From a virus, in the IMG/VR virus record IMGVR_UViG_3300045258_000084, positions 1-44,352 of that record: a stretch of 44,352 bases of DNA; one strand, given 5' to 3'. The translations under genes were made by a program, and so were the position numbers. Shown piece by piece: positions 1 through 44,352 of the stretch. A model generated the notes under the pieces. That model was not told the DNA's origin. It was given only the letters and a program-made list of their open reading frames with translations, and made no database searches. Numbering within the stretch: position 1 is the stretch's first letter; each line of letters begins with the position of its first letter.

Positions 1-127
1 GCAGACTTTCGTCAATAACCCGGCTGGATGCAGCTTTATAGACACCCTTGCTGTACCGGCTGGTTATTAAGCTTTAAAGTTACATAGAGGTAAAAGAAAA
101 TGCATAAGTTCTTTAAGTTTCTTCGAG
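1..127. repeat. Terminal direct repeat copy 1, identical to 44226..44352 (circular-assembly overlap)
   Basis: All 127 nt at the window start recur verbatim at the window end. The repeat cuts through the capsid gene 3' end (1..70 = 44226..44295) and the 5' end of the next gene, so the unique genome is 44,225 bp. Confidence 0.95.
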
Positions 128-465
128 ACCATGAAGGTAAATACTTCGATGTTGAAAGCAATTGGCAGAATTATTCTACCATTAACTCTCCTACTGGAAA
201 TCCTAATGGTGGAAAACCAAGTGTAATCGCCTCCGCAAACGTAATCGCGCCTGTTGGATTCTTAACTAAGCTAACAGGTAATACAGTAGTTAAGACAATC
301 ACACCTCCATACACTGATAGAGTTCATATGATTGCTATCATGTATGCTGGTGTGGCAGGAAGTGACGCGACTGGTAATATTACAGTTTTGGTTACTTCAA
401 TTGCGCTTCAGACTGTGCTATATATTTTTGAACCATTAACTCAAAAATATACGCCGGTTCAGTAG
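100..465 (+). CDS. Virion-module protein of unknown family (possible minor capsid/decoration protein)
   Basis: 121-aa ORF about 30 nt after the capsid gene, with gaggtaaaag upstream. Its N-terminus MHKFFKFLRDHEGKY mirrors the capsid N-terminus MYNWFKFVNDHGGTY. A hairpin follows. Confidence 0.6.
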   Translation: MHKFFKFLRDHEGKYFDVESNWQNYSTINSPTGNPNGGKPSVIASANVIAPVGFLTKLTGNTVVKTITPPYTDRVHMIAIMYAGVAGSDATGNITVLVTSIALQTVLYIFEPLTQKYTPVQ

Positions 466-474
466 TTAGTTATA

Positions 475-505
475 GGGGAGATGGGTATAAACTCATCTCT
501 CCTTT
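475..505 (+). terminator. Hairpin plus short T-run after the capsid gene pair
   Basis: ggGGAGATGggtataaactCATCTCtCC followed by tttaaaaa. The stem is 6 bp plus 2 bp with one bulge. Confidence 0.45.
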
Positions 506-521
506 AAAAAGGAGAACAAAA

Positions 522-929
522 ATGGCAAATGTTGGTGAAATTATTAAAGATTTTATTGAATTAGGTTATAATTACCTTTTAACTCATAATAAGTATGTTG
601 CTGAAATGAAGGAAAATGAACATACTATTGCTATTGCAAATTCTCCTGGACATGAAGCTCAATTGAAATTAAATTTATTACATAATTTAAATAAGAATGG
701 GGAGTTACCAGTTAAGCCAGTAGTTGCTAAAGTTAAGGATGAAGTTAAGGGAATTGAAAAGTCTGAAGAACCAACTAAAGTTGATATGGATGGACTTAAA
801 AAAGAATTAGAGAAACTAAGGACCAAAGAAGCAGAAAAATTAAAAGTAGAAGGCGGAGTGTTCGGAAAGTTCGAAAATCAAAAGGAAGAAAATAAGGAAA
901 AGGGAGATGGACAACAGAATAATTCCTGA
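522..929 (+). CDS. Lys/Glu-rich coiled-coil-like protein, morphogenesis module
   Basis: 135-aa ORF with a GGAG Shine-Dalgarno (aaaaggagaacaaaaATG) and a charged K/E-rich C-terminal half. Confidence 0.6.
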   Translation: MANVGEIIKDFIELGYNYLLTHNKYVAEMKENEHTIAIANSPGHEAQLKLNLLHNLNKNGELPVKPVVAKVKDEVKGIEKSEEPTKVDMDGLKKELEKLRTKEAEKLKVEGGVFGKFENQKEENKEKGDGQQNNS

Positions 930-1509
930 TTTTATAGTAAGAATAAATAACCAATTAGCTAGTAAATATGGTTATTTTGAAGGGATGAAAAATTGCCCAA
1001 ACTTTCGGGTAGTGTGGTCTAATGATCAATATGAACATAGATTAACTGCTTATACTAAGGAAGGATTACAATTAATTCATCCCGAAGTTAGATATCTACC
1101 CAAATATAGTCAGTGGTTAAGTAGTAGATGGGTAATTGAAAAATGTGTTCCTATTCCAGAACTTAATCGAAAAGATTTAGTCGCGGAGAAGTTTTCATAT
1201 GAACCACTGCATGGTTTTATAAATGTTTATACAGATAAACCTATAGATCCTACATATAGAGCTTGCGAATTTTTAGTTGAAAATGTTTTAGCTCAATTAA
1301 GAGTGAGAAATGGAATTCCCCAAGCTAAATATGAGGATCCACTCTTTAATGCAAGTGATCCTAAAATTTCTCGTGAAGTGAAAGAAGCTCATTTAAATGA
1401 ATTAGAGAGAGAATTATTCGGTAATGATACTTCTGTAACGGATAAATTAATGACTCAAGAAGCTGTGATAGTTCCATCTAATTTCGAAAAAATGGTAAAG
1501 GAAATTTAG
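907..1509 (+). CDS. Hypothetical morphogenesis-module protein
   Basis: 200-aa ORF overlapping the upstream gene by 23 nt. I recognise no motif. Confidence 0.6.
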   Translation: MDNRIIPDFIVRINNQLASKYGYFEGMKNCPNFRVVWSNDQYEHRLTAYTKEGLQLIHPEVRYLPKYSQWLSSRWVIEKCVPIPELNRKDLVAEKFSYEPLHGFINVYTDKPIDPTYRACEFLVENVLAQLRVRNGIPQAKYEDPLFNASDPKISREVKEAHLNELERELFGNDTSVTDKLMTQEAVIVPSNFEKMVKEI

Positions 1510-1511
1510 TC

Positions 1512-2243: not shown

Positions 2244-2254
2244 TAGGAAAATAA

Positions 2255-2947: not shown

Positions 2948-3009
2948 ATAGTAGTGCAGTTATATATTCCAATTTCTGGAAATATAACGAAGATATCCTA
3001 CAGGAGTAA

Positions 3010-3633: not shown

Positions 3634-3639
3634 TTATTT

Positions 3640-3664
3640 GAGGGGAGGTAATTAGCCTCCCCTC
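3640..3664 (+). terminator. GC-rich hairpin (terminator/attenuator-like)
   Basis: GAGGGGAGG-taattag-CCTCCCCTC, a perfect 9-bp stem 7 nt after the stop codon. The trailing T-run is poor (acttatt). Confidence 0.55.
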
Positions 3665-3680
3665 ACTTATTGGGTATATA

Positions 3681-9084: not shown

Positions 9085-12000
9085 TGGGTGGCCCAATTGA
9101 AGAATTTCCTGATATAACTGAATATCCTGATAATACTGAACCTAATTTTAAGGGTGAAAGTGAACATCCATTAGCTGGAATTGAAGATTGGATGGATTCT
9201 AAAAGGGCCGCATTTGTAAAAAATCATCCGATTATTTCTCATCTTATTCAGGGAACTGGAGATTTTGCTAAGGGATTATATCATTCTGTAGACGAAACTG
9301 GAAGAAATGCTGCTAAAGCTTTACATGAAGGAAATATTCCAGGCGCGTTTCAAGCTGTAACTTCACCCTTAACTGGAGTAGTTAATCAGGTTAATGAAAA
9401 GTTATTAAGTGGAGATATATCATTTCAACCTGACCAAGCTAGACATGAGGCTATTAGTCAAGTAGTTGGAATGGCTGGATTACCTGGCAATGAAATGCAG
9501 GAAGCTTTCCATAATAGAGATTATCCGCGCCTAGTAGGTCAAGGTGTAGCTGCATTAGGTTTAGGATTATTAACTCATGGTATGGGTTCAAATCGGAGTG
9601 AAATTAATAAGTCCCTTGAACCTACTGGACCAATAGATACATCATTCACACATGGTGTAGAGAATTTTAAAACTGATGAAATCCCCCACAATGTTCCACC
9701 TGATTTAGTTCCAGTTGGTGGTGAGGCTATTCATAATCAGCAATTTGATTTACCACTCAGAAAGACTCATGAAGATTTGGCATTACAAAATCATCCTGAA
9801 TTACCTGCTAAATTAGGCGCGCCTCAAGATGCAGCTTTACATGATAAGATATTTAAAACTGGCGCGGAAACTGGAGATAATATTGAACAATTACCAGAAG
9901 GATGGCATAGACCCGCTGAAGCTGCATCAAATGATAAAATGGTTAGATTATATAGGGGTGAAACTGCTGAAGGAATTCCTGGAGATAAAGCAGGACAAAA
10001 CTTTACTACTGACCCATTAGCAGCTACATTTTATGCTAAGCAAAATGGTGGAAGTGGTAAAACTTATTATATTGATTTGCCAGAATCTGAAGCAGCTAAA
10101 TATGCTGACCCAAATGCAACTGAAAATGGTGGGCATATACTTTCACCTGAATTGGCTGAACAAGCTAGGCAAAATGAGTTGGGTAAAGGAATAGAAGAAG
10201 GAACTTCAGTTATTAAGCCTAAAGAAGAATCTCCTGAATTAGTTAAACAAGTTGAAGCTGCGCGCCAAGAAAATGAAAGATTAAAAGGTCAAGTTGAACC
10301 CCCAACTCAACAAACAATTAATAAGCCAGTTCAAGATGGTTTTGCTGAGCCTAAGTTTGTTGAAGATGCTAAGTTAAAAGATGTAGGTTCACCAGAAGTT
10401 CCTCCACCTGGTCAAATTACTTCTGCAAATGATAAGGGTGGGGAAAATACCCCATTTAAAGATGTTTCTGGAACTAGAGCAGAATATAGTTCAGTTCATA
10501 AATTATTAAGTTTAAAACCCGAAACTAAACCCATTGCAGATGCATTACTTTATGCACAGGATAAAGGTGGCGAATGGTTAGCTTCTAATATGCGTGATTT
10601 TGAAGAAATTTCGCGGGAATTAGATAATAGTCAGAAATCTCAATTAGGTCAATTAATTGATCACGGAACTAAGGATTTAAAATATAACCTTGATCCTAAA
10701 AATGGGGTTACTCCTGATTTAATTAATAGGGCTAACCAGGCTAAACAATTACTAGATGAAGTATTTGTTAAAGCTAGAACTGCAGGGGCTACGAATGAAA
10801 GTGGAAAACCTATTGGGTATTTAGACCAGTACTTTACCCATATGGCCAAAGAACCCGAAGGAATGATTAATCAGATTAAAGAAATCTATAATCATTACCT
10901 GGGTAGAAATGCGCCTATCCCTGAATTATTTTTAGGTAAGAAGGAAATTCCTCAAGATAAGGGAATGGGAGTAACTGGGGATATTTACGATAAAGGAATG
11001 GGAAATCCTTGGTCACCATATACTCAAACTAGAAGTGGGATGAATCCCGCGGAAATTGAATGGAATTATAATAAGGTAATTCCAGCTTATCTTGAATCAA
11101 TGAAGAAGGTTTTATTCGACGCGCCAGCAATTAATAAGGCTACTGCGCAATTAGAAAAAGTTCCAGATTCAAACCTGAAAGATACCGCAACCTGGGCTAT
11201 TAAGAATTTTTCAGGTTATGATGCAGATAAAAACTTACATGGTGCGTTTGATGCAGCAGCTAATCAAGTGGCGCGGGTTACTGCTAGGTCTTTTGTCAAT
11301 CTTAATCTTTCTTTACATGCTTTACACCTTGGTGAAATACCAGTCAATATCTATCCTGAATTAGGCGCGAAATATACTACTATGGGCGTGGCGGATATGT
11401 TACGTCATCCATTACAAAATTATACTGAAATGGTGCGTTTAGGTTTATTGCAAGGCGAAACTAAACCTTGGGCATTTAAAACTGTCGCAGAGAGAATGGA
11501 TAGTGCTAGTTATTTCTTCAGTTCAATAGAATCAATGGTTAAAGGTATAGCCTATAATGGCTCAAAACGTATGTATCTTGACCAAGGTATGTCACCTACT
11601 GAAGCTAAATATGCTGCACTAGCTAAGGCGAAAGATTTAACTTTAACTGTAGATAAAGCGCGCCAGATGAAAGGTTTATCTCCTGAAGCTAATGTAGCGG
11701 GGGGTCCAGTATTTTCTAGACTTGGTAATCAATTTAAAGCTATTCCATCTAAGATTGTGGAACAGTATATTGATATTGCACGTGAGGTAGGTAAAGATCC
11801 TGCAAAAATGGAACCTTATTTAAAAATGATGAAAGCTGTAGCAGGTTCAACTGCCGCGGGAGTAGCAACTGCATATGGCGCGCATATGTATCATGTTAAT
11901 CCTAAGTCATTAGTTGCAACATCCGCATTTGGGCCATTTGCTAATACTATGTATCGAATTTTCGCGAATGATATTTACAATGCAGGTAAAAGGTTCCATG

Positions 12001-14938: not shown

Positions 14939-15122
14939 ATTTATCTATTTTATTATCTGGATGTTTAGGCGCGCCCGGTAAAAATACATATCTAATTCTA
15001 TCTGGTTTAGAGGATTTTAATTCTCCATTTTTAATTTTTCTCTTAATAGTACTTTCACTAACTTTTAATTCCTTAATAGCTTGTTTAATTGTAATTAACA
15101 TATTACTTACCCAATTCAACAT
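14919..15122 (-). CDS. Excisionase/MerR-type helix-turn-helix DNA-binding protein
   Basis: ITIKQAIKELKVSESTIKRKIKNGELKSSK fits the Xis-family HTH pattern. An alternative start lies at 15098 (MLITIK). Confidence 0.55.
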   Translation of the reverse strand: MLNWVSNMLITIKQAIKELKVSESTIKRKIKNGELKSSKPDRIRYVFLPGAPKHPDNKIDKFDSKNK

Positions 15123-17247: not shown

Positions 17248-18449
17248 TCACCTTTAAAATACTTTCTAAGAGCCTCTACTTCTGTGGGATTTAATGCATA
17301 TATTATTTGCCCTCCTATAGCACCCGAACTAATTAAACCAGCCTGTTCAAATGATTGGATCATTGTATCTAATTCACTTCCCTCAAAATGCATCCAATAT
17401 TTTGATAGTAACATGGCGCGAGAAATTTGATTATTTGGTCTATCAAGTAACTCATTAATGATGAGAGTTTTTTGCGCGGCCATTGATGATTTACCAGATT
17501 TACCAAATGTTACTTGTCTCACACTACCGATGAAGAGTTCACATCGTTTTATAGATTCGATCATATCGTCTAGATCTATAACTAAATCTCGTCTCTTACT
17601 TAATGAGATGAGCATTGCCACTTTTAAAATGCTATCCCCATAACGCTGAATAGTTCCGGTATCATCCTCAATTTTATCAGTATTAATTCGTCCATAAAAT
17701 TCATGATACCATTTCTCAAATAAATCTCCTGCGGGGGTATCACTTATTGGTCTAAATGGGCCTTCTAATTTTCCTACTTCTTGTAAGTAATTTATCCATC
17801 CGGCTTCATTCGGAATTTGTTCAAGATTTCTAATTAAGGGATTTAACTTATTAACATGTTTCTCAGCTATGACGAACATCCTACCAATGAATCCACCCTT
17901 AAAATCCTTATTTGTAATAAAATCTTCAAAGTGGGCTTTATTAGTTGCTACCAATAGTGAAATAGTTGGCGCGTGTAACTTATAACTATCCATCTTCAAT
18001 AGTGAAGCATATTCCCCCGCGTTCCAATTTCTATCAAATAAATCAGTTAATATGGTTAATGCTGCTGGGTCATTTACTAAACTTGAAGTGAATTCACTAG
18101 CAACTATAAATGCGGTAGCTTTCTTATTTACATGTCCACCAGGTTGTGAAGTTGCAGTTCCTAACTTTTGCATGATGCCTTGAATTGAACTTCTTCCTGA
18201 AATAATCGTGGTATTATTTACCTGTTGAACCAATCTTTTAGCAAATGCTACTGGCGCGCCTTTCTTCATTCCACTATCTGCTAGAAGCATAGTGAATATA
18301 TTAGGATAAGTTTTAAACGCGCCACCCCTATCTAAGTATACATTATCTTTTACTATCGCGGATATGGCAGTTAATGTTGACCACCACCAAAAATTCAATG
18401 GAGATTCCATCTCCCTGAAAGAGTATAGAACTTCGGCGAGTAAATTCAT
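17244..18449 (-). CDS. DUF3987-type helicase-like replication protein
   Basis: 401 aa. TLTAISAIV...YPNIFTMLLADSGMKKGAPV matches the DUF3987 N-terminal pattern and carries a degenerate P-loop. Confidence 0.6.
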   Translation of the reverse strand: MNLLAEVLYSFREMESPLNFWWWSTLTAISAIVKDNVYLDRGGAFKTYPNIFTMLLADSGMKKGAPVAFAKRLVQQVNNTTIISGRSSIQGIMQKLGTATSQPGGHVNKKATAFIVASEFTSSLVNDPAALTILTDLFDRNWNAGEYASLLKMDSYKLHAPTISLLVATNKAHFEDFITNKDFKGGFIGRMFVIAEKHVNKLNPLIRNLEQIPNEAGWINYLQEVGKLEGPFRPISDTPAGDLFEKWYHEFYGRINTDKIEDDTGTIQRYGDSILKVAMLISLSKRRDLVIDLDDMIESIKRCELFIGSVRQVTFGKSGKSSMAAQKTLIINELLDRPNNQISRAMLLSKYWMHFEGSELDTMIQSFEQAGLISSGAIGGQIIYALNPTEVEALRKYFKGE

Positions 18450-19251: not shown

Positions 19252-21753
19252 TCACTCCTTAAATTTAGAAAAATCTCGATAATTATCACCAATTTCAACC
19301 TCACTTGGAATAACTAAGTCCCTCCTAGATAAACTACAGTTTTTAAATGATATTGGTCGTTCCATCTCTTCTCGTGCAACTCTAGCAACTTCTTTAGCAT
19401 CATTAATTCGCGGGGAGATGAGTAATGCATCGTGAGATTCAAGGATAATCCTGATGCCCGGTAATCTACGTTCAATACGAATTTTTGCTGCTTTAGTATT
19501 ATCACTAACTGTACGTTGGGGTATGTAGCTATATGCTTGTCTAAAAAGGTCATCTGACCACTTATCGTAGAAAGTGCGAAGCCCCCCATATTCTGATTCA
19601 ATTCCATACGGTAACCCCGCGATTAACTTTTGTTTATTTTCGGCTAGTGCGTTTTGCACTCCCATTTGGAAATTTGCGCGAATTTTAGGTTGCTTAACAT
19701 GAAAAATTTTAATTGCAATTCCGGCAAATGCTTCACTAATAGTAAATAATTCTTCAGTCCCCGGTTTCATTATCTTATACTTGCGAGCATCCGTATTAAC
19801 TGTAAGAGAAGCACGATTTTTACTAGCTCCAAGATGGCAAGCATGCCTAAGAGTTTTACCACAGAAGCGAATTGGATGCTCATAACCCCATTTCTTCTTT
19901 GACCAATCGTCCTCACAACCGCCAAAAAACCAACTAGCTGTAAGAGCATGATAATCGTGGTGATCGATAGCATATAGCGCGTCCTCATCATCGGCTAATA
20001 GGAAAACTACTCTAGCTTCAGCTTGTGAAGAATCTATATTTAGGAAGCAATATCCGGGATCAGCTTCATACTGAACTCTAACATCTCCACCAATATCACC
20101 ATGTTTAGTCATGGTTTGAAATGCTTGACCTATATAAACTTCAGTTTTCTTCTTATCTTTCTGAAGTGTAATCGCAGGTCTAATTGGTGGGTCTAATTGT
20201 CCAGTTGATGTTCGGCCAGTATCTAAGCATAGATAGAAAGTTGTTTTCATCCTTCCATCGTAATCGGGAAGGGCCATTAAGTATGTATCAATTGTTTTAT
20301 CAATTTTGCGCTTATCTAATACTATCTCAATCGCTCTTCTATGTATGGGATTCTTAACTGTATTTCCTAATAACTGAGTAAGAACTTCCTCTCCTGTACC
20401 AGACCTGCGAGGGATTTTAAAATTCTCATATAGCATTACATCTACTTGCTTGGGAGAGCCGGTATTAACAAATCCGCCTGCAAGTTGAAATAACTCGAAA
20501 CTTAATTCTTCAGATTTGGTTACATACTTCTTAATTAAATCAAGTTTGACATTATCATTAATGCGGAATCCATAAGCTTCAGTTCGTAAATAACTTTCAT
20601 GAAGTTCCATGAGAAAATTTTGATAATATTCTCTCTGCTTTAATTCATCTAAATCCCCATCCATTGCTTTATCTACTTCAGCAGTGTTACAACTATCCAA
20701 AGCACAACCTATGAAGAGAGATTCTAATGGACCTTCATACATTCCTTCATCTTTATGAAAGGGATTCTCTGTGAAAATACTTATGAAGAAAGCTAACTTC
20801 TTAGGTAATTCCGCATTAATAGCATGGCCTTTAAGCATTACATCGCCGGCTAACTTTCTAATTCTAAACCCAAGACGTTCAATCTTATCCTGGTCATATT
20901 TAAAATTTTGACCAACTATATCGGCGCGGGGATGATACAATAATTCCTGCATCAATAACCAACATCGCGCCATTTCCTTATCTGACATTGTAGTATGGCC
21001 TGGTAAATTCCATAATGGCATTGTCATACCATCAGTTTTATCAAAGGCTATACCAATGCAGACTGGAATACATTCTCTAGCTTCAATATCTACATAAACT
21101 TTAAATCTACCAGTCGCGGGGATTTTACTTCTTAAGAATTCAAATAACTGAGTAGATGATTTTACAACTTGTAAGTTATGATAAGGCTTAATGTATTCTG
21201 GGCTATATGAGTTTTTAATAGCTCTACGGAAATCGAATTTGGTAATAGTTCTTTGCCATCCATCTTTAATAGCATGGTGTATTTCAAAGATGTCGTAGAT
21301 TGGGATAACTTTGATCCCACTATAATTGGGGATAATGGAGCCACGGTAGTTATCAATTGCATCTTTACCAAACTTTCCTAAAGTCGCGAATAATGCTGTA
21401 AGTCCAGTGGCAATGATTATGTTAGGCTTAATATTATTTAGTTCAACCTGAAGTTCATTATATTGCTCTTGAACATTAATACCTACATTTTCGGCGCGCT
21501 TTTTAAATGGCTTCTTTGTGCCGAATCTAGGATTTGGTGGTACAAAGTATTTACATGCATAGGTTTTCCATATTTGACCTAAACTCACATCATGAGGTTT
21601 TAAGTATCCCTCTAAAATACTTGCTTTAATACCTTGAATAGCTAATTCATTCGGAATTTCATTAAGAGATGGAGATTCCCCCACTATAGCTATTTTAGCA
21701 TAGGGGTCTCCATTACCCTTTACATATATCTTACTTAACTCAATTTGTTCCAT
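19252..21753 (-). CDS. DNA polymerase: N-terminal UDG-family-4-like domain + 3'-5' exonuclease + family A polymerase
   Basis: 833 aa. The UDG-like motif is IAIVGESPSLNE. Exo motifs are VYVDIEAR and GQNFKYDQD. Pol A motif A is DSSQAEARV, motif B is RFCGKTLRHACHLG and motif C is ESHDALL. Confidence 0.85.
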   Translation of the reverse strand: MEQIELSKIYVKGNGDPYAKIAIVGESPSLNEIPNELAIQGIKASILEGYLKPHDVSLGQIWKTYACKYFVPPNPRFGTKKPFKKRAENVGINVQEQYNELQVELNNIKPNIIIATGLTALFATLGKFGKDAIDNYRGSIIPNYSGIKVIPIYDIFEIHHAIKDGWQRTITKFDFRRAIKNSYSPEYIKPYHNLQVVKSSTQLFEFLRSKIPATGRFKVYVDIEARECIPVCIGIAFDKTDGMTMPLWNLPGHTTMSDKEMARCWLLMQELLYHPRADIVGQNFKYDQDKIERLGFRIRKLAGDVMLKGHAINAELPKKLAFFISIFTENPFHKDEGMYEGPLESLFIGCALDSCNTAEVDKAMDGDLDELKQREYYQNFLMELHESYLRTEAYGFRINDNVKLDLIKKYVTKSEELSFELFQLAGGFVNTGSPKQVDVMLYENFKIPRRSGTGEEVLTQLLGNTVKNPIHRRAIEIVLDKRKIDKTIDTYLMALPDYDGRMKTTFYLCLDTGRTSTGQLDPPIRPAITLQKDKKKTEVYIGQAFQTMTKHGDIGGDVRVQYEADPGYCFLNIDSSQAEARVVFLLADDEDALYAIDHHDYHALTASWFFGGCEDDWSKKKWGYEHPIRFCGKTLRHACHLGASKNRASLTVNTDARKYKIMKPGTEELFTISEAFAGIAIKIFHVKQPKIRANFQMGVQNALAENKQKLIAGLPYGIESEYGGLRTFYDKWSDDLFRQAYSYIPQRTVSDNTKAAKIRIERRLPGIRIILESHDALLISPRINDAKEVARVAREEMERPISFKNCSLSRRDLVIPSEVEIGDNYRDFSKFKE

Positions 21754-27406: not shown

Positions 27407-29569
27407 TTATTTCCCCTTCGTCCTAACCACTCTTAACTTCTTATTCTTCTGATAATCTTCTACTAAAGCTAAAGCTAATTCCTGCATTAATGAGTCAGCT
27501 TCCCAGCTCATTTCATGTTCTGCTTCAGTTTTCTTACAAATCTTACATATATTTTTAACTTGCGACGATTCTATGAAATCATGATTCATAACCGCATTAA
27601 AATTTATTCTCTTACGTTCAACTAACCTATCCAAATGCTCATCTGTAGTTCCTTTAGCATGTGGATATTGTGATTTTATCTTTTTAAGCTGACCAATTCT
27701 TCTACAACGACCTTCAAATTGTTCTTCATTACCTGGATTCCATTGTCTTTCATGGTTATAAACATAATCGCATGTTTGAAGATTTAAACCTTCACCGGCT
27801 GCAAGGGTTGAGGCAATACAAATTGCTCTCTCATTACGATTAAATATATCTTGAGCTTTATTTCTAGCCGCGCCATCCATATCACTTGTAATGTTAACAA
27901 TGGGTATTTTAGGGTGATTTTTTCTACAATACTCTTTAAGTTGATTTGTTAACATAAGACCAACATCTTGATGGTGAACTCCAATTAAAATCTTACCATC
28001 AGTTTCATCAAGATAATCTTGAACATGGTCCATTGTAAATGGAACTTTTGCTAAACCTACTATATGACGCATTCGCGCAAGTTTTGCAATAATCTCTTGA
28101 CTATTAGCCTGCTTACCTTCAAGAGTTAATGCTATGAACCACTCCGCGAATTGGTCCATTTCATTTGCATAAGCTTCTTCTTCAATCTCAGGAATTTCAC
28201 ATACCATTCTAGTTCTAGTAATGGGAGGAAATTCTGGCATAACTTCTTCAGGTTCTCTACGTATGCATAAATCCTTTACATATTCCTTGAAATCTTTTGG
28301 ATACTTAATTCCGCCTTCTTTATACTTTCCACTATTCGAATCGAGATAATAATCCACCCATTGATTAACAAAATATTGGAAAGATGGAAATTTATCGGGC
28401 GCGATTAGGTTAAACATTGTGAAAAGTTCTGAACCCCTATTTTTCCAAGGGGTTCCACTTAGGGGTAATACCTTTACTCCCTTTAACTTAAATACAAGGT
28501 CAGTTACCTCTTGGGCGCGCTTAGAATCTTTATTCTTAATTTGCTGAACTTCATCCAATACTACCATTTTGATACCAAGTTTAACAAACTTATCAGTATC
28601 AAATGTTCTGAGAGTGTCATAACTTATGATATAGTTTTTGAACCCCGGTAAAACTCCATCCTTACCACTCAATATCATAAGTGGGCAGTAACTATTACCC
28701 AATATTCGAAGCATCTCGCCCAAGAATTGATATTTCAATCCACTCTTTACAATCCACAAAACTGGCAAACTTTCAGGCGGGAGAAACTTAACTATACCCA
28801 TTGCTTGGATAGTTTTGCCTAATCCCATGTAATCTAAAATCGCGAAACCATTTCTTATTGAAAATGCTTTCCACGCCGCTTCCATTCCTTGAACTTGAAA
28901 TGGATATGGGCGTTTAGCATTGCATTTTGAGCAAACAGTTTTATGTGTTGCTTTAACTGGTAATGTCCATGCGTGTTTGCATGTATCCAGTCCATCAAAT
29001 ACTATACTTGAGAAATCGGGAGGGCGCGGAATATCTTTAATAATGAAATGACCGCAAGTATATTTAATTAATTTCTTACCTTCAACTTCTTTTTCAAACT
29101 TAACTATGGCTATATTCTCTTTACCTTCTTTTAAGCATACCGGGCAAAGATTAGTTATAGCTTTAATTCGATGTTCCACTTTTTTAATGGTTTCTTCATG
29201 AACTATTGTTTCAATTTCCTGACCATTGGCTATCGCCGCGATTATATTTGGAGGTAATGATAATCCGCATTTTTCAGTATTATCGCAACCTATTTCACGT
29301 GCTTTAGCTTGCCAAATAGAATCATGTTTATGATTAGGGGTTAATGCATGAGCTATTTCATGTTTAATTGTATTGATTACTTCAGTATCGGGATGGATAC
29401 CTATTGAATATGCGTTTAAGAATATAGTTTTTAAACTATAATCACATAAGCCTAAAAAATTCTCATTTGAGATTAATTTAACTTTCCAATCATTTAAATT
29501 ATATTTGGAAAGTAATTCTTTAGTTATGGATATAGCTTGACTTGTATCGAGTTTATTTGCTATGTTCAT
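27407..29569 (-). CDS. SprT-like zinc-metalloprotease domain fused to SNF2-family ATPase/helicase
   Basis: 720 aa. The N-terminus has TIKHEIAHAL (HExxH) plus WQAKAREIGC, followed by Cys-rich linkers. SNF2 motif I is LDYMGLGKTIQA, motif II is VVLDEVQQIKN and motif VI is QFEGRCRRIGQ. Confidence 0.75.
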   Translation of the reverse strand: MNIANKLDTSQAISITKELLSKYNLNDWKVKLISNENFLGLCDYSLKTIFLNAYSIGIHPDTEVINTIKHEIAHALTPNHKHDSIWQAKAREIGCDNTEKCGLSLPPNIIAAIANGQEIETIVHEETIKKVEHRIKAITNLCPVCLKEGKENIAIVKFEKEVEGKKLIKYTCGHFIIKDIPRPPDFSSIVFDGLDTCKHAWTLPVKATHKTVCSKCNAKRPYPFQVQGMEAAWKAFSIRNGFAILDYMGLGKTIQAMGIVKFLPPESLPVLWIVKSGLKYQFLGEMLRILGNSYCPLMILSGKDGVLPGFKNYIISYDTLRTFDTDKFVKLGIKMVVLDEVQQIKNKDSKRAQEVTDLVFKLKGVKVLPLSGTPWKNRGSELFTMFNLIAPDKFPSFQYFVNQWVDYYLDSNSGKYKEGGIKYPKDFKEYVKDLCIRREPEEVMPEFPPITRTRMVCEIPEIEEEAYANEMDQFAEWFIALTLEGKQANSQEIIAKLARMRHIVGLAKVPFTMDHVQDYLDETDGKILIGVHHQDVGLMLTNQLKEYCRKNHPKIPIVNITSDMDGAARNKAQDIFNRNERAICIASTLAAGEGLNLQTCDYVYNHERQWNPGNEEQFEGRCRRIGQLKKIKSQYPHAKGTTDEHLDRLVERKRINFNAVMNHDFIESSQVKNICKICKKTEAEHEMSWEADSLMQELALALVEDYQKNKKLRVVRTKGK

Positions 29570-31297: not shown

Positions 31298-31528
31298 CTA
31301 ATTTAAAATTCTATTAACTCTCATTACTTGATACTTCAGTGTTAATGCAAAAATGCAAATCGCGCATAGTCTATAACTAGCTTTATCCTTATAAAATATA
31401 TCAATTGTATTAGATATTGAATATGCAACATCTTCAGGTTCAAATTCCATTATATATTGTGGATATCCAATATGTTCTAAATATTCAAATACTTTATCAC
31501 GATATTGACTTGAACTCAAATGAAACAT
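31298..31528 (-). CDS. Hypothetical early protein
   Basis: 76-aa ORF with a TAAGGAT SD, the first gene downstream of the internal promoter. Confidence 0.5.
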   Translation of the reverse strand: MFHLSSSQYRDKVFEYLEHIGYPQYIMEFEPEDVAYSISNTIDIFYKDKASYRLCAICIFALTLKYQVMRVNRILN

Positions 31529-31563
31529 TATATCAATCCTTAATATTACATTACTTTCAAAAG

Positions 31564-31581
31564 TGTCCTCAATCGGTGACA
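31564..31581. repeat. 18-bp repeat TGTCCTCAATCGGTGACA (copy 1 of 2)
   Basis: 16 of 18 positions match the copy at 31739..31756. It is an imperfect inverted repeat of the form TGTC...GACA. Confidence 0.7.
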
Positions 31582-31610
31582 GGGGGTATGTATCTCTTAC
31601 TCACTCTCTC

Positions 31611-31639
31611 ATTCTATCACACGGGGGGTAACCTGTCAA
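31611..31639 (-). promoter_or_regulatory. Near-consensus sigma70 promoter (TTGACA-17-TAGAAT, with TG extended -10)
   Basis: On the minus strand: cTTGACAggttaccccccgtgtgaTAGAATgagag. Confidence 0.6.
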
Positions 31640-31738
31640 GTGTCCAGAAATGTGGACGGTTCACTTTCGATAGAAATGTATTGAATATATATGAAAAAAA
31701 ATATATAAAACAAAACACTCCACAACCAAAAAATGAAA

Positions 31739-31756
31739 TGTCCTCATCCGGTGACA
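31739..31756. repeat. 18-bp repeat TGTCCTCATCCGGTGACA (copy 2 of 2)
   Basis: A direct repeat of 31564..31581, 175 bp away. Confidence 0.7.
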
Positions 31757-31780
31757 ACCTTGCCCCTAGGCCCCTCGACA

Positions 31781-31815
31781 GAGAGAGATAGAGAGGTAGA
31801 GAGGTATAGAGATAC
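31781..31815. repeat. Degenerate tandem GA-rich repeat (GAGAGGTA-like units)
   Basis: The sequence gagagagata gagaggta gagaggtata gagata is mirrored by a CT-rich tract at 31594..31616. Confidence 0.6.
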
Positions 31816-31890
31816 ACATGAAAGTAATGTATACATATATATCATATTATAAGTTTGATTATCATTTATAACATCATATATAAATACACG

Positions 31891-31939
31891 AATAGGGTAT
31901 AATCTAATCTAGTATACCTAGACTAAACTATACCCTATT
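31891..31939 (-). terminator. 11-bp stem hairpin after the first early gene
   Basis: AATAGGGTATA-27 nt-TATACCCTATT, with a nested TCTAG-gtata-CTAGA hairpin in the loop. It lies 15 nt downstream of the 31954 stop. Confidence 0.4.
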
Positions 31940-31953
31940 TATGTTAAAGGTTA

Positions 31954-32280
31954 TTACAGGCTGGAAAGAATAACCTTAATTTCATCTGCACTCTTACCCA
32001 TAGCCTTAAGAGTTGAAACCAAACGCTTCTGAACCTCTTCAGGACTATTTGGGTCAGGCTTGTAAGCTTCAATATGCTTCTGATATGCCGAAGCCTTTTT
32101 ATTAAGCCTTTCCTTTTCATTTGCAAGCTTCATGAAGTTATAGCCTGCATTAGAAGCTTCTTCAGGGGATTCAAATTCACTATACTCATAAGTGAATTCC
32201 TGCTTATCCGCGGGGATATCCTGTCCGTAAGCACTTTCCGCTTTAGACTTGCCTGTGAGGTTTTTCATTTCTGACTCCAT
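31954..32280 (-). CDS. First early gene: acidic hypothetical protein
   Basis: 108-aa ORF. The better start is probably the Met at 32268 (GGAGTCAGAA ATG). The protein has acidic/aromatic stretches (EFTYEYSEFESPEE). Confidence 0.55.
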   Translation of the reverse strand: MESEMKNLTGKSKAESAYGQDIPADKQEFTYEYSEFESPEEASNAGYNFMKLANEKERLNKKASAYQKHIEAYKPDPNSPEEVQKRLVSTLKAMGKSADEIKVILSSL

Positions 32281-32328
32281 CTAACTTAGGTCGGCGGGTT
32301 AATTCCCGCTCTTGACCATCTACAAGAG

Positions 32329-32357
32329 AGTATAGCATCTCGCCCAAAGCTTGTCAA
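32329..32357 (-). promoter_or_regulatory. Near-consensus sigma70 early promoter (TTGACA-17-TATACT, with TG extended -10)
   Basis: On the minus strand: gtgTTGACAagctttgggcgagatgcTATACTctc. It lies about 50 nt upstream of the first early gene. Confidence 0.65.
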
Positions 32358-32695
32358 CACCTATTTTGGTCTAGTCGTCCGAAAGTATGCGCGCAATTCG
32401 TAACTGGCGCACGGCATTAACCTGATAGGGTTTCATTCCTGTAACCATTACTTTGTTAGTATGGTTTGTTCCATTGCCCAAAACAATTGTGCTACCGCGC
32501 CATGATAATTCTGTATTGCCTTAAATCGTGCGTATTGGTTTTGCATAATTCTCTCCATTGTTGAAAGTGTTTTTTAGATAATTACATATGCTATAACCAT
32601 GCCAAACTTTAACCCAATGAATATGGTACCTTTCGCTGTTACTTCGCTGTTCTATTTCTATGAAAGTGGACAGTGCTATTCCACTTTTGAGGACA

Positions 32696-32709
32696 TTACA
32701 ATATTGTAA
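32696..32709. promoter_or_regulatory. Perfect 14-bp palindrome TTACAATATTGTAA (operator-like)
   Basis: Seen directly in the divergent intergenic region. A second perfect 12-bp palindrome, TTGATTAATCAA, lies at 32771..32782. Confidence 0.45.
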
Positions 32710-32826
32710 CTCACATGCAATATCCGCGCCATTTCTCAATACAAAACTTTGAACACTTAAACTTTTAACTTTGATTAATCAAACTTATCTCACCTTCCTT
32801 GCATATACCATGCCATATGCCTGCCG

Positions 32827-32944
32827 TAATAGAGTCTCATCTCGGTCTGGCGCACGAAATATTCATCTCTATCTCCAATACATAAAATACTAATAGGGTC
32901 CTATATTTAACAAAATTCAAACTTTAAAATTAATAGAGTCTCAT
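32827..32944. repeat. Three copies of TAATAG(A/G)GTC(T/C)(C/T)AT upstream of the late operon
   Basis: The copies at 32827..32840 and 32931..32944 are identical (TAATAGAGTCTCAT), and the copy at 32891..32904 is TAATAGGGTCCTAT. Copies 2 and 3 run into -10-like TATATT and TATAAT. Confidence 0.65.
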
Positions 32945-32983
32945 ATAATTTAAAAAAGTTGTAAAAGGGAAATTTCACCCTTC

Positions 32984-33013
32984 TTGACTTGTTGTAGTGG
33001 CGTTTGTTACACT
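32984..33013 (+). promoter_or_regulatory. Sigma70-like promoter for the plus-strand block (TTGACT-18-TACACT)
   Basis: cttcTTGACTtgttgtagtggcgtttgtTACACTcacc lies about 45 nt upstream of the first plus-strand ORF. Confidence 0.5.
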
Positions 33014-33055
33014 CACCACAAGGGGTAGTGGGTCCGGGGAGAAGTTTCGAAAGTA

Positions 33056-33616
33056 ATGTATGTTGGAGTTAATAAAATGTTAGGAATTATTTCTTCTGAA
33101 CAACTTGATAATGAAGTTAAGAAGTTAGAGAAGGTTAACTTAGATAGTGATAATACTAAACTTGGGCGCGGTAAGGGTAATATTGAAACGCCAAATGTAT
33201 TGAGGAAAGTTATCGCGGCTGAAATTATTGAGGGCGGAAATGTTAAAGAAGTTAGTGAAGCATTTTCCATCTCGAGATCATCTATCAGTGCATATCTTAA
33301 GGGTGTTAATTCTACTACTGATTATAACTCTGTGGATAAAATTAATCAATCTCTTGTGAATAATAATCTCAAAACTAAAGATAAGATTGTTCGTCTTACC
33401 AGGAGAACACTTCGGCGCGCCGTAAATAATATTACTGATGATAAACTCGCCGCGGCTAAACCTGGTGAATTAGCAATGGTTGCTCGAAATATGTCAGCTA
33501 TTGCTTCAGATTTAGAACCTCAAGTTGAAGTTTCTGAGACAAGGAAAGTTGTAGTAACTTATAGACCTAGAATTAGACCCGAGGAAGATTTTCAGATTCT
33601 TCAGGTTAGTGAATAA
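33056..33616 (+). CDS. HTH DNA-binding protein (regulator or small-terminase-like)
   Basis: 186 aa. GNVKEVSEAFSISRSSISAYLKG is a helix-turn-helix. An alternative start lies at 33077 (GGAG SD). Confidence 0.5.
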   Translation: MYVGVNKMLGIISSEQLDNEVKKLEKVNLDSDNTKLGRGKGNIETPNVLRKVIAAEIIEGGNVKEVSEAFSISRSSISAYLKGVNSTTDYNSVDKINQSLVNNNLKTKDKIVRLTRRTLRRAVNNITDDKLAAAKPGELAMVARNMSAIASDLEPQVEVSETRKVVVTYRPRIRPEEDFQILQVSE

Positions 33617-33915
33617 TGGCTAGAGCTGTTGATAGGGGTTCGAGTTTAATTACTAAAGATAATAAAGGTATTATCTGCGCATGTAGAAATTCAGAATGTG
33701 AACTTTATAATGAGAGAAAAATTAGATCGCGCCGGGAAAATTCTCTTGGAATATGTAGAAAATGTGGAATGAATATGGTCGCGATTGATAATACAAGATT
33801 AAAACTTAAAATGGAAAAGGCGAAAGAAGAATATGAAAAGATTAATGGGATTGGGAAGTTTAGCATTACTAATCTTAATCGTTTCGGTAACGACGGCCAC
33901 AGCTCAAACAGTTAA
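33616..33915 (+). CDS. Zinc-ribbon protein
   Basis: 99 aa with CACRNSEC...CRKCG. Its tail overlaps the next gene by 83 nt. Confidence 0.5.
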   Translation: MARAVDRGSSLITKDNKGIICACRNSECELYNERKIRSRRENSLGICRKCGMNMVAIDNTRLKLKMEKAKEEYEKINGIGKFSITNLNRFGNDGHSSNS

Positions 33916-41296: not shown

Positions 41297-41310
41297 AGGG
41301 TGAGATAACA

Positions 41311-42597
41311 ATGAAGATTCAAATGCCATTATACGCGCCTGATGATAACTTGGGTACTGGTGCGGCCCTTGAAGATGGCTCATTAAATGCTGATAAAATT
41401 TTAGATAATTTACTTGATGATTCTGATATTACTGATGAGGGTAAAGATGAGAAATTAGATTTAAAGGATGATAAGAAAGATGAAGGTAAGGAAGAGAAAG
41501 ATGAGGAAAGTGAGAAAGAGGATGAACTTAAATTAGATGAAGAAATTGATGAAAGTAAATTAGAGTTTTCAGATTTGCCAAGTCGGAAAGAAGTGCTTAA
41601 AGCATTTCCTGATTTATATAAAAAGTTCCCCGCGTTGGAAAAGGCTATTTACAGAGAACAGCAATATAGTGAAGTTTTTCCCAATATTGATGATGCTAAG
41701 ACCGCGAAAGATAATGCAGATAATTATGAGAAATTTGAAGCATCTCTATTGGATGGAAACATTTCTTCTGTTCTAAAGTCAGTAAAAGAAGCTGATTCAA
41801 CCGCGTTTGAGAAATTGACAGAACAATTTCTTTTTAATTTATATGAAGTCGATAAGCCTGCTTATTTTGGGGTGGTTTCAAATGTTCTAAAGGATGCCGC
41901 GATTTCCATATTTAAATCTGGTGCTAGTATGGGCGCGGATAATCAAGAAGGTCAGAATTTAAGACGCGCCGCGGAAATTTTACATAAATTCTTTTTTCAA
42001 GATGAAAAGATTACTAATTATAATTATAAACATCAAGTTAATCGCGGCGAATCTAAGGCTGATCCTAAAGAAGAACAACTTACTAAGAGAGAAGAACGAT
42101 TCCTTCAGGATCAATTAGATGTAGCTAGTAATGATGTAAGTTCTTCAGTTGAAAATCTAGTTAGAAGATCAGTAGATAATGCAATTGATCCAACTGGAAG
42201 AATGTCAGATTATGTTAAGAATAAGGCTATTGAGGATATTATTTCTTCACTTGATAGTGAAATAAATTCAGATGCAAGATTTAAGAAAGTTTTAGATAAT
42301 CTTTGGTTAGATAGTGGTAAAAATAGTTTTAATAATGCTAGTAAGACTAAGATTAAAAATGCTCTATTAGGTAAAGCTAGAACTGTTCTGCCTGCTATTA
42401 TGCGTAGGGTTCGGGCAGAGGCCCTTAAAGGTTCAGCCGCACGTAATAGAAATGATAGGGATGAAGATACCCCATTGCCGCGTGGAAGATCGGCTAATTT
42501 ATCTTCTAATACTTCATCCAGAAGTGAGGGAACTAAAGCAGAAAAAGGGGAAAAAATTCCGAAGAAAATGACGACGTTAGAATATTTGAATAGTTAG
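41311..42597 (+). CDS. Scaffolding-like protein
   Basis: 428 aa with a highly acidic D/E/K N-terminal third, a helical remainder and a basic tail. It lies immediately upstream of the capsid genes. Confidence 0.6.
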   Translation: MKIQMPLYAPDDNLGTGAALEDGSLNADKILDNLLDDSDITDEGKDEKLDLKDDKKDEGKEEKDEESEKEDELKLDEEIDESKLEFSDLPSRKEVLKAFPDLYKKFPALEKAIYREQQYSEVFPNIDDAKTAKDNADNYEKFEASLLDGNISSVLKSVKEADSTAFEKLTEQFLFNLYEVDKPAYFGVVSNVLKDAAISIFKSGASMGADNQEGQNLRRAAEILHKFFFQDEKITNYNYKHQVNRGESKADPKEEQLTKREERFLQDQLDVASNDVSSSVENLVRRSVDNAIDPTGRMSDYVKNKAIEDIISSLDSEINSDARFKKVLDNLWLDSGKNSFNNASKTKIKNALLGKARTVLPAIMRRVRAEALKGSAARNRNDRDEDTPLPRGRSANLSSNTSSRSEGTKAEKGEKIPKKMTTLEYLNS

Positions 42598-42614
42598 TCG
42601 AGGTAAAGAAAAAC

Positions 42615-42983
42615 ATGGCAAATACCTCAAATAAATCTTTTTCAATCGCTATTACAGGGGATGGTTCTATATCTTCGATTGCTTGGTCTGAGATATTTAA
42701 TGGATTAAGCAATCCATTATCCCCTGCTCAAAGCGAAATAAAAGATTTAGCATTGGGCGCAAACACAATAACTCCACCTACAGGTGGGGGCACTACGCCA
42801 GTTGGGGTATTAATTATTCCCCCCTCAACTAATGCAAATGCCCTTACTTTAAAAGGTATCGCAGGAGATACGGGAGTTCCAATATCTAAAACTGATATGA
42901 CTTATATTGGTTTGGGCGCGGCTGGAACTTTTGTTATTAATGCTGCGGCTTTAACGAGTGGGGTTAGGTTTATTTGGATTTAA
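42615..42983 (+). CDS. Small virion-module protein
   Basis: 122 aa containing LTLKGIAGDTGVPI, located between the scaffold and capsid genes. Confidence 0.5.
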   Translation: MANTSNKSFSIAITGDGSISSIAWSEIFNGLSNPLSPAQSEIKDLALGANTITPPTGGGTTPVGVLIIPPSTNANALTLKGIAGDTGVPISKTDMTYIGLGAAGTFVINAAALTSGVRFIWI

Positions 42984-42999
42984 TATTTAGGAGTATATA

Positions 43000-44295
43000 A
43001 TGTATAATTGGTTTAAATTTGTTAATGATCATGGTGGAACTTATAAGGCCTTAACCGAAGCTCAAGTTGCGGGCCTTGAATTAGAAAGGGTTATTCCCAA
43101 GGTTAGAACTTTATTTGAAAGGGATGATAAGTTCTATTCAAATATCAAGAAGCGTGATGTTGAAAAAATTTCTAATAGACAGATGCGTGTTCCATTAGAA
43201 ATTAGACCTGGGGGTTCATTTCAATACTTTAATCCGGATGGTGGTGATTTAGGTCGTGGTAGCGGGCCAACTTTTGATAAGGCTGTGTTAAGTTCAGTAT
43301 TCATGAGTGAGAATATTGAATATACTAAGTTAGCACAGTGGGCAACAGATGATGATAGGAAGTCGGTAGCAAAAGGAGTTAAAAGGTTAGTAGCTACAGC
43401 TCTTGATGAAATCCGTAGACAATTAGATAGTCAGATGATGCAGCCTGGTAATGGTGTAATTGGAACTGTTACTACTGATACCCCTGCTGGTGGTTCTAAC
43501 GTAATCACATTAACTACAGATGGTTTTGGCGCGCGTCTGATGAGATTTAATCAGACTGTTCAGATTTTTGATGTTACATTAGCTACCAATAGGGGAAGTG
43601 GTTTAATTACAAACTGGGATGTGCCTGGAAAGACTATTTCCATTACACCTCAGATTGCTGGTGTGATTGCAACGGATGTTATTGTTACAGCAGGATTACC
43701 CGCGCCAGCAACATTACCCGCATTATTTGGGGTTCCTTACCATCACTCAGCTTCTGCTGTAGGAACATGGTTAGGTTTTAATCGTGCAACTACTCCTGAA
43801 ATTCGTGCTAATAGAGTTAATGCTGGGGGTTCTGCGCTTACTTTACCATTACCCAGATTAGCAATTAATAATATTGGCAATCGAATTGGATTGGATAATA
43901 ACTTCTCGCCTAATGCATGGACTCATCCCTGCCAAGCACAGGCTTATGAAGAAATTGGCCAGTTAGTTGTTCAGATTCATAAGCAGGCAAAAGATGAAGC
44001 TTTAGATATGTATTTCGGTGATAACATGCAGTTAGCTGGCGCGCCGATTAAGCGTTCGTTTAACTGGGATAAAACTCGTATTGATTTCATTACAGATGAA
44101 GTATGGGGCCGTGGTGAAATTCTTCCCATTGGATTCTACACAACTGATGGTAGGAAAACGTTTGAAATTCGTGGTGCAAGTGGTGGTGTGGCTACTGCTG
44201 ATATCTTTTATATGGTAGTGGGCATGCAGACTTTCGTCAATAACCCGGCTGGATGCAGCTTTATAGACACCCTTGCTGTACCGGCTGGTTATTAA
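43000..44295 (+). CDS. Major capsid protein
   Basis: 431-aa ORF with a strong SD (aggagtatataATG) after the scaffold-like gene. Size and position are typical of an HK97-fold capsid protein. Its 3' end is duplicated at 1..70. Confidence 0.7.
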   Translation: MYNWFKFVNDHGGTYKALTEAQVAGLELERVIPKVRTLFERDDKFYSNIKKRDVEKISNRQMRVPLEIRPGGSFQYFNPDGGDLGRGSGPTFDKAVLSSVFMSENIEYTKLAQWATDDDRKSVAKGVKRLVATALDEIRRQLDSQMMQPGNGVIGTVTTDTPAGGSNVITLTTDGFGARLMRFNQTVQIFDVTLATNRGSGLITNWDVPGKTISITPQIAGVIATDVIVTAGLPAPATLPALFGVPYHHSASAVGTWLGFNRATTPEIRANRVNAGGSALTLPLPRLAINNIGNRIGLDNNFSPNAWTHPCQAQAYEEIGQLVVQIHKQAKDEALDMYFGDNMQLAGAPIKRSFNWDKTRIDFITDEVWGRGEILPIGFYTTDGRKTFEIRGASGGVATADIFYMVVGMQTFVNNPAGCSFIDTLAVPAGY

Positions 44296-44352
44296 GCTTT
44301 AAAGTTACATAGAGGTAAAAGAAAATGCATAAGTTCTTTAAGTTTCTTCGAG
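44226..44352. repeat. Terminal direct repeat copy 2, identical to 1..127
   Basis: Verified base by base against 1..127. Confidence 0.95.

Follow-up and report, generated by a model that had tools for sequence, protein, structure and literature searches.

The closest phenomenon known so far to the one described here is that of the highly iterated palindromes (HIP) of cyanobacteria, HIP1 (GCGATCGC) and the alternate HIPs (PMC5861425, PMC4390886): GC-rich palindromes, which occur far above expectation, are accommodated in all reading frames through codon choice and are found between genes as well. They combine a common core with lineage-specific flanks, the core resembles the target of a methyltransferase, and it is debated whether biased repair or selection accounts for their abundance. 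The same description fits the tetramer CGCG in IMG/VR virus record IMGVR_UViG_3300045258_000084, positions 1 to 44,352 (the whole stretch of DNA analysed, 44,352 nucleotides (nt), hereafter the window), which represents the complete genome, assembled as a circle, of a tailed phage not in culture. The CGCG excess in this genome is real and strong, and represents a variant of the HIP-type phenomenon. It differs from HIP in that the core comprises 4 bp (6 bp when the flank is included) and not 8 bp, resides in a virus instead of a cellular chromosome, and is enriched 4- to 35-fold as compared with 15- to 300-fold for HIP1. Periods of 10-90 kb are known for HIP, whereas no significant period of CGCG was detected between 20 and 2000 bp in this 44-kb genome, and CGATCG, the core of HIP1, is absent from the window (0 observed, 8.9 expected). 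Furthermore, a cognate methyltransferase is encoded in the same genome in the case of HIP (PMC4390886), while the phage encodes none.

Other described systems share single properties with the CGCG excess. The Dcm sites (CCWGG) of E. coli, inflated by very-short-patch (VSP) repair, are a methylase target over-represented neutrally, at the DNA level, strand-symmetrically and independent of position, and the CGCG excess resembles them in this; in the window, however, the corresponding depletion of T-containing products is not seen, the magnitude is far larger and the phage carries no vsr or dcm-like gene. Chi, KOPS and DNA uptake sequences (DUS) are likewise dense, short GC-rich words whose number counts more than their exact position, but they are asymmetric and strongly skewed in orientation, in contrast to the palindromic core described here and its unskewed hexamer (44 GGCGCG and 45 CGCGCC on the coding strands). 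Like the targets of restriction avoidance, CGCG is a 4-bp palindrome of the kind recognised by type II enzymes, with the sign reversed here; elsewhere CGCG itself is avoided, with an observed/expected ratio of 0.43 in the sister phage L145 and of 0 to 0.15 in unrelated phages. In (CG)n tracts of the Z-DNA type, finally, alternating purine-pyrimidine runs of at least 6 bp are enriched, which is not the case in the window.

The exact number of CGCG on the + strand of the window is 176, where a hand count made for the first-pass annotation of the sequence had given about 175, and its further counts proved equally close. GGCGCG is present 52 times and CGCGCC 40 times, giving a total of 92 hexamers, and 87 of the 176 sites bear a GG or CC flank extending them to one of these hexamers (85-90 had been stated). 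The heptamers amount to 31 (20 GGCGCGG and 11 CCGCGCC, instead of about 30), CCGCGG to 13 (about 12) and CGCG with A or T on both sides (WCGCGW) to 12, exactly as estimated; all five octamers GGCGCGCC it had located are there (Table 1). Base composition (35.2% G+C) predicts about 42 CGCG per strand, a total of 2.6 hexamers when both strands are counted, and about 0.1 octamers, in line with the previously assumed 40-50, about 3 and fewer than 0.1, which corresponds to a 4.2-fold excess of CGCG and a 35-fold excess of GGCGCG. Against a dinucleotide Markov chain (about 24 per strand expected) CGCG is 7.4-fold over-represented (z=44), and with a maximal-order Markov model z reaches 15.4 for CGCG and 6.9 for CGCGCC.

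Coding sequence holds 169 of the sites. A shuffle preserving protein sequence and codon usage yields 40.0+-5.8 CGCG (z=22), with 44 GGCGCG observed vs 4.0 and 45 CGCGCC vs 2.9, and a stricter shuffle, which also fixes every dinucleotide count including the CpGs at codon junctions, still leaves 169 vs 77.0+-5.0 (z=18.5). CGCG ranks top among the tetramers under every null model, and the excess claimed from reading the letters is several-fold over Markov and codon-shuffle expectations alike (z=15.4 to 44). Seven sites lie in non-coding DNA, where 3.5 are expected; this excess of about 2-fold, in small numbers, indicates that the enrichment is not limited to coding sequence. The same enrichment in unrelated AT-rich genomes, which the first-pass annotation had named as evidence against its claim, is absent: in such phages CGCG shows either no excess or strong avoidance (observed/expected 0 to 1.6; T4 and five T4-like contigs 0.64-1.6, Flavobacterium phage 11b 0.15, Pelagibacter phage HTVC115P 0, Staphylococcus phage K 0). 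The excess is not generic to AT-rich phage DNA.

As had been proposed, the cause acts on the DNA and not on protein sequence or global codon bias: the excess survives the protein-, codon- and dinucleotide-preserving shuffles, and the motif occurs on both strands and in all three frames. In raw counts the frame NNC-GCG is dominant (110 of the 169 coding sites), but this skew is due to opportunity, that is, to where the protein permits a CGCG; of the synonymous opportunities 0.19 (CGC-G), 0.22 (NCG-CGN) and 0.15 (NNC-GCG) are occupied, and the normalised skew is gone. Rare codons are mostly found in CGCG context, with C preceding 110 of the 180 GCG codons and G following 30 of the 51 CGC codons. 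In a quasi-independence fit of the previous codon's last base against the Ala codon, C|GCG is seen 110 times where 7.1 are expected (15.5-fold), equivalent to a scaled bias of about ln 15.5 = 2.7. The C/T ratio before GCG exceeds that before GCA or GCT 10- to 30-fold. Many Gly-Ala dipeptides are, as noted earlier, spelled GGC-GCG (32 of 63), and NNC-GCG is used in 18 of the 32 X-Ala-Pro, a saturation of about 50%. No orientation bias of the asymmetric hexamer exists anywhere in the genome, the two orientations on the + strand being balanced in most 4-kb bins. Occupancy is near-uniform along the genome as well (0.14, 0.18 and 0.19 in three modules; heterogeneity p=0.03, no gene individually at p<0.01). 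Lineage-specific CGCG sites coincide with amino-acid differences at a rate of 0.667, the background being 0.671, and coincidence at the background rate means that the force behind CGCG never overrides protein sequence. A separate observation concerns a 346-aa gene of the tail module (Table 1), in which none of 20 possible CGCG sites is filled, against a genome mean of 0.167; perhaps it is a receptor-binding module that was acquired recently from a lineage free of the CGCG excess.

The full octamer of the near-palindrome previously described as iterated does not qualify as the unit. GG is the preferred half-flank (92 of the 352 half-sites, 8.5-fold), and with independent flanks 11.8 octamers would be expected where 5 are seen, a shortfall that rules the octamer out as the selected unit; this is instead the tetramer CGCG, extended by GG on one side, and a single flank suffices. 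Sites lacking any GG flank still are about 2-fold above composition (89 vs 42), and A/T-flanked CGCG are rare (ACGCGT 0.11, ACGCGA 0.14, TCGCGA 0.27). The recurrence 'about every 250 bp' holds as a mean density but not as a period, since the spacing fits an exponential distribution (Kolmogorov-Smirnov p=0.38), i.e. Poisson scatter. Of all 947 CpGs, 349 fall within CGCG and the remaining solo CpGs reach 0.44 of expectation.

Individual sites turn over while their density stays constant. Comparing 15.8 kb of codon-aligned orthologues from the window and its relative L082 (77% nucleotide identity), we found 78 CGCG in each genome, 27 of them shared (35%, about 0.77^4, the neutral expectation) and 51 private to either side; the overlap with L001 is only 1 of 45 sites, and among more distant relatives the proportion in common drops further. 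When conservation was tested against phase-matched words, following the HIP1 study (PMC5861425), CGCG in phase 2 proved to be retained at 0.46 as compared with 0.37-0.39 for TGCT, AGCT, GGCT and TGCA, whereas in phases 0 and 1 its retention is below that of the average word. The analogy to HIP1 drawn in the first-pass annotation consequently extends to abundance, frames and flank extensions but not to conservation of individual sites above control words. Where one genome has CGCG, the other mostly is two synonymous steps off (TGCT, AGCT, AGCA), and gains and losses polarised in three taxa, with counts of 8-14 being too small for a spectrum, are mostly two-step jumps between CGCG and these words. 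Such jumps fit two superimposed tendencies, solo CpG being disfavoured and double CpG favoured. Four near-identical strains of the L082 type differ by 94 single nucleotide polymorphisms clustered in recombination tracts, 3 of which fall in CGCG vs 2.1 expected, a sample without statistical power. Position-specific elements such as operators or origins are excluded by the turnover; the force keeps a CGCG density of about 1 per 250 bp in every gene, not individual sites.

Searches with the large terminase (TerL) and the DNA polymerase (PolA) retrieved a large virus family, represented by uncultured contigs of about 42-48 kb from many samples. CGCG is the top tetramer in all closest lineages, with observed/expected ratios of 4.7-5.0 in L082-L085 (TerL 82% identical), 4.0-4.3 in L086/L087 (72%), 2.5-2.8 in L088/L089 (69%) and 3.1 in L090 (63%), as well as 3.8-4.5 in L120/L122 (PolA 63%) and 4.1 in L124 (PolA 56%). 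According to the maximal-order Markov model, CGCG is the sole strongly over-represented word in each enriched lineage (z 11-13; about 15 in the window), and the hexamer preference is confined to the window. Preferred flanks vary by lineage: GG in the window, TC, CC or GG in L082, AC in L086, AG in L090, and G or (CG)n in L120, L140 and L144. In the PolA tree the enriched genomes fall into two clades apart from each other, one with the window, L082, L086 and L120 and another with L128, L140 and, more weakly, L131; L124 and L144 are enriched and stand outside this tree, L144 having the flank and run pattern of the second clade. Lineages between the clades have no excess or are depleted (L135/L136 with 34.9% G+C 1.1-1.5, L133/L134 0.5-0.9, L145 with 35.9% G+C 0.43, L125 1.5), and the enriched L140 has 40% G+C and normal CpG. 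AT-rich sisters lacking the enrichment and the enriched L140 together demonstrate that the trait is independent of G+C. Within clades whose PolA identities span 61-85% it is stable, and across the virus family it is patchy; that it belongs to clades of one family and is missing from equally AT-rich sisters is new. No gene tracking the trait beyond phylogeny was found when the window proteins were compared with all family loci by tblastn. The architecture of L140, L144, L131 and L128 (PolA about 50% identical) is unlike that of the window, as GCGC is enriched as well and alternating C/G runs of 6-9 nt recur every ~0.5 kb in coding DNA of 34-40% G+C, potentially rendering it Z-DNA-prone.

Phages commonly purge short palindromes. 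The enrichment, as pointed out earlier, is opposite in sign to such restriction avoidance, and yet the same genome does avoid other palindromes: GTAC reaches 0.19 and GATC 0.34 of the maximal-order Markov expectation, AGCGCT, CAGCTG, CGATCG, GTCGAC, GACGTC and CGTACG are at 0, and AGATCT, AACGTT and TGTACA at about 0.07. This marks CGCG as a specific exception and not as an escape from palindrome-directed pressure; the avoidance itself, judged from the sequence, suggests hosts with GATC- and GTAC-type restriction.

Scans against Pfam, PHROGs or NCBIfam of every open reading frame (ORF) of at least 100 aa, most small early ORFs and the accessory ORFs of enriched relatives detected no methyltransferase, Vsr or other DNA-modifying enzyme, which confirms the earlier impression that no methyltransferase gene is visible; about 60% of the phage ORFs are without annotation. 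An ORF of L086 flagged as a methyltransferase by a catalytic-motif scan has no support from Pfam. The unannotated gene g24, whose product is the only sizeable replication-block protein without annotation, was considered as a hidden methyltransferase and rejected: its predicted structure (pLDDT, the model's own confidence measure, 89.5) combines an N-terminal beta-sandwich with a TIM barrel, its best structural matches are the glycoside hydrolases GH5/GH53, and the fold resembles these and not a DNA enzyme. Going by this model, g24 probably is a polysaccharide depolymerase or lysin, though located in the replication-side block; a CarboxypepD_reg domain is present in some of its homologues.

Regarding the host, AGGAG-type ribosome-binding sites preceding many genes of the window, together with two sigma-70 promoters each matching at 11 of 12 positions (Table 1), make a bacterium most likely, and probably not a member of the Bacteroidota. 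Megablast and tblastn found no close cultured phage, the best TerL match being 31% identical, and a scan of genome collections for the host returned just a phage-sized contig binned with a Saccharibacteria metagenome-assembled genome (MAG) and an Anaerolineales fragment. An archaeal host, hinted at by a PolA homologue from a 'Nitrosopumilaceae archaeon' (P0127 / L118, GCA_035567735.1), was rejected: the gene sits on a 7-kb contig on which all genes are viral and CGCG is merely ~1.5-fold above expectation. The presence of this contig in the Nitrosopumilaceae MAG probably is a binning artefact and not a sign of an archaeal host.

What drives the excess could be the cell in which the phage replicates. 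We incline, with somewhat less than even confidence, to a viral analogue of HIP, in which a host-dependent, genome-wide, weak directional force is tied to CGCG-specific methylation and repair. Such a force, favouring CGCG (GGCGCG in the lineage of the window), would be pervasive, strand-symmetric and frame-independent and would act almost solely at synonymous positions. The host would bear a CGCG-specific cytosine methyltransferase without effective cognate restriction, and methylation-biased mismatch correction would make CGCG from near-miss words faster than CGCG decays, with a steady C-to-T outflow from the methylated outer cytosines balanced by CGCG formation from any neighbour. We infer CGCG methylation, a host enzyme as the driver and repair bias instead of selection as the force because of the neighbouring words, the fit to a ratchet model of HIP, the commonness of CGCG methylation and the patchy phylogenetic pattern. 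As to the first, words one transition away from CGCG are about 3-fold more frequent than those one transversion away, on both strands, which suggests a C-to-T flow out of the outer cytosine, as from methylation. Elhai's methylation-directed ratchet for cyanobacterial HIP sequences predicts such a balance. It further predicts flanks that differ between lineages, GCGCGC being one of them in the case of a CGCG methylase (PMC4390886), and an extension of this type is seen in L120 and the second clade. Few motifs are methylated as commonly as CGCG in environmental and uncultured prokaryotes and in Caudovirales MAGs (PMC8919816, PMC9516812), so that hosts with such an enzyme are common, and a palindromic 4-mer is a typical methyltransferase specificity. 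Poisson placement, uniform occupancy and baseline coincidence with amino-acid changes are the behaviour of a genome-wide neutral or weak process, and two clades, AT-rich sisters with the trait absent or reversed and no phage gene tracking it make up a host-like phyletic pattern. The tetramer-specific, DNA-level nature of the excess speaks for this reading as well.

Several points weigh against such a methylation-linked bias. The methylation-directed ratchet is an unproven model even for HIP1. The effect of VSP repair on CCWGG in E. coli reportedly is far below the 15-fold bias seen here at synonymous sites. HIP1 sites, unlike those of the phage, are conserved and have been argued to be under selection (PMC5861425). 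A novel phage-encoded factor possibly resides among the ~60% of ORFs that are unannotated, and clade stability fits a phage-inherited factor equally well.

The main rival to methylation-linked bias is selection for site density, which we consider a serious though rather doubtful explanation: a trans-acting factor of phage or host would recognise CGCG or GGCGCG, with number and not position being decisive, for instance in protection from exonucleases (Chi-like), as GC-rich lagging-strand primers in AT-rich DNA, in compaction or packaging, or as a self tag against a CpG-poor host chromosome. Constant density despite positional turnover, the clade stability of the trait and the ~50% saturation of the hexamer in Gly-Ala and Ala-Pro are compatible with it, and so is the apparent bistability of the words, most polarised changes being two-step jumps. 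An excess of transition over transversion neighbours is equally what mutation-selection balance with decay from a favoured word would produce, and the majority of phage ORFs are unannotated. On the other hand, a candidate factor was not found and no gene co-varies with the trait, the asymmetric hexamer shows none of the orientation bias of Chi, KOPS or DUS, and the motif never overrides protein sequence. Retention of 0.39-0.46 is only slightly above the ~0.36 expected neutrally for a word with two third-codon positions, although a scaled advantage of ~2.7 per site should, as a rough estimate, give clearly stronger retention, and the patchiness of the trait among sisters of equal G+C suggests an external, host-side cause.

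Less credit can be given to the remaining explanations. Classical VSP repair, named as an analogue in the first-pass annotation, would require a Vsr-type endonuclease and an m5C methylase of CGCG, with correction of T:G to C:G turning TGCG/CGCA (or CGTG/CACG) into CGCG. The excess indeed is palindromic, DNA-level, position-independent and strand-symmetric, the raised C/T ratio before GCG points in this direction, and CACG/CGTG are depleted relative to CGCG-poor relatives (0.45). At the outer position, however, the depletion of T products is missing, TGCG/CGCA being at 0.84 of the dinucleotide expectation, at 1.30 and 1.29 in the quasi-independence fit and at 1.12 in the ratio of CGCG-rich to CGCG-poor relatives; the transversion neighbours AGCG/CGCT (0.50 and 0.40 in the quasi-independence fit) and CTCG/CGAG are depleted as strongly or more, which VSP repair cannot yield, and the phage has neither Vsr nor an m5C methylase. 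We therefore regard it as quite improbable. Structural punctuation, i.e. selection of alternating CG tracts because they can adopt Z-DNA or other non-B forms or because they act as thermal clamps in an AT-rich sequence, has even less to recommend it: the long C/G runs of L140, L144, L131 and L128 are what it would predict, whereas in the window, where it had been suggested, (CG)3 is strongly avoided (CGCGCG 3 vs 28.6 in the Markov model) and alternating runs (88 of 4, 84 of 5, 21 of 6 and 2 of 7 nt) mostly are 4-5 nt and too short. Nor are equally stable GC-only words enriched (GGCC 1.09, CCGG 0.87, GCGC not overlapping CGCG 22 vs 42 expected), which favours sequence-specific recognition over a stability effect. 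That CGCG is a relic of a GC-richer ancestor, shielded from decay during a drift from ~47% to 35% G+C, is a slightly fainter prospect still. Its density (176 per 44 kb) is near that of relatives with 45-50% G+C and near the random expectation for 50% G+C DNA (~173 per strand in 44 kb by our own arithmetic), but the turnover data contradict a protected relic, the sites not being inherited (1 of 45 shared with L001, the 27 of 78 shared with L082 being neutral, 51 private to each), polarised gains being observed, retention not being elevated and L140 being enriched at 40% G+C with normal CpG. An effect at the level of protein, codon pairs or translation, or an artefact of composition or assembly, for which the raw frame skew might be cited, is refuted and deserves next to no credence: normalising to opportunity removes the skew, the excess outlasts all shuffles with the hexamer equal in both coding-strand orientations, non-coding DNA is enriched as well, AT-rich control phages have no excess, the relatives sharing the trait come from many samples, and an independent assembly is 99.98% identical.

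This second assembly (Logan SRR35384918, L081) is permuted relative to the window and differs at 3 positions. The ends of the window are identical over 127 nt (Table 1), which sets the true genome size at 44,225 bp. The fusion of PolA with a domain resembling family-4 uracil-DNA glycosylase (UDG) is general: nearly all of the 120 homologues listed, out of 734 passing E <= 1e-40, carry the same two precomputed Pfam domains. In L120, the homologue of the SNF2/SprT-like gene encodes 1054 aa with a LAGLIDADG (intein-like) insertion. An inverted repeat in the early region could be an operator, origin or terminator. The relatives L117-L121 encode, between the AAA_24 and polymerase genes, a small protein with a match to the Acb2/Tad1-hairpin (anti-CBASS/anti-Thoeris sponge) family; in the window, the small ORFs located at the corresponding place gave no such match.

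Table 1. Coordinates of features in the window
Feature	Position	Strand	Remarks
Identical ends	1-127 and 44226-44352		k-mer overlap from circular assembly
First + strand block	1-12.2 kb	+	head-tail adaptor, tail genes
Tail-module gene, 346 aa	8044-9084	+	none of 20 possible CGCG sites filled
Octamers GGCGCGCC (n=5)	9816-9823, 14968-14975, 18253-18260, 33414-33421, 44038-44045
Replication/recombination block	12.3-32.3 kb	-	contents in the next four rows
g24, 402 aa	15884-17092	-	unannotated
Family A DNA polymerase (PolA)	19252-21753	-	N-terminal family-4 UDG-like domain
SNF2 helicase	27407-29569	-	N-terminal SprT-like domain
DUF3987 primase/helicase, Sak4-like annealing protein, PD-(D/E)XK exonuclease, tRNA-Leu(TAA)	within 12.3-32.3 kb	-	
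Sigma-70 promoters (n=2)	32329-32357 and 31611-31639	-	TTGACA, 17-nt spacer, TG-extended TATACT or TAGAAT; each 11/12 matches; directly upstream of leftward early operons
Inverted repeat	31892-31938		20-bp stem, ATAGGGTATAGTTTAGTCTA...TAGATTAGATTATACCCTAT; between two early genes
Non-coding CGCG, six of seven	31361, 32390, 32496, 32725, 33728, 33780		divergent early-promoter region 31361-33783
Non-coding CGCG, seventh	38734		
Second + strand block		+	large terminase; 784-aa protein in portal position, no family match; major head protein
Differences from L081 (n=3)	35860, 35869, 35881		none inside CGCG

Within an incomplete coverage of the literature, we located no report of a phage clade in which CGCG or any other palindrome of the restriction type has been driven to higher numbers. 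It is conceivable, though we would not count on it, that this is the first HIP-like palindrome in viruses, which has arisen or been lost repeatedly in one phage family and reveals that CGCG-rich DNA is favoured in some DNA transaction, either as a self tag (in packaging, replication or sparing by nucleases) or through a new methylation-guided repair ratchet. A 15-fold rise of a restriction-type tetramer at silent sites points to a sequence-specific DNA process outside the standard viral forces. In practical terms, the CGCG signature strongly marks a host or lineage at the k-mer level; host prediction and binning from k-mers could be misled by it or gain in sharpness, and the excess predicts unusual patterns of digestion with BstUI, BssHII and SacII or of methylation. 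Cyanobacterial HIP1, the only analogue studied in depth, has defied explanation for some 30 years, in part owing to the size of the chromosomes that carry it. In a small virus whose close relatives include enriched and non-enriched ones, contrasts are supplied by nature and recoding is easy, and if a self tag or a ratchet indeed were at work, a 44-kb genome with sisters lacking the trait would make the HIP problem experimentally tractable.

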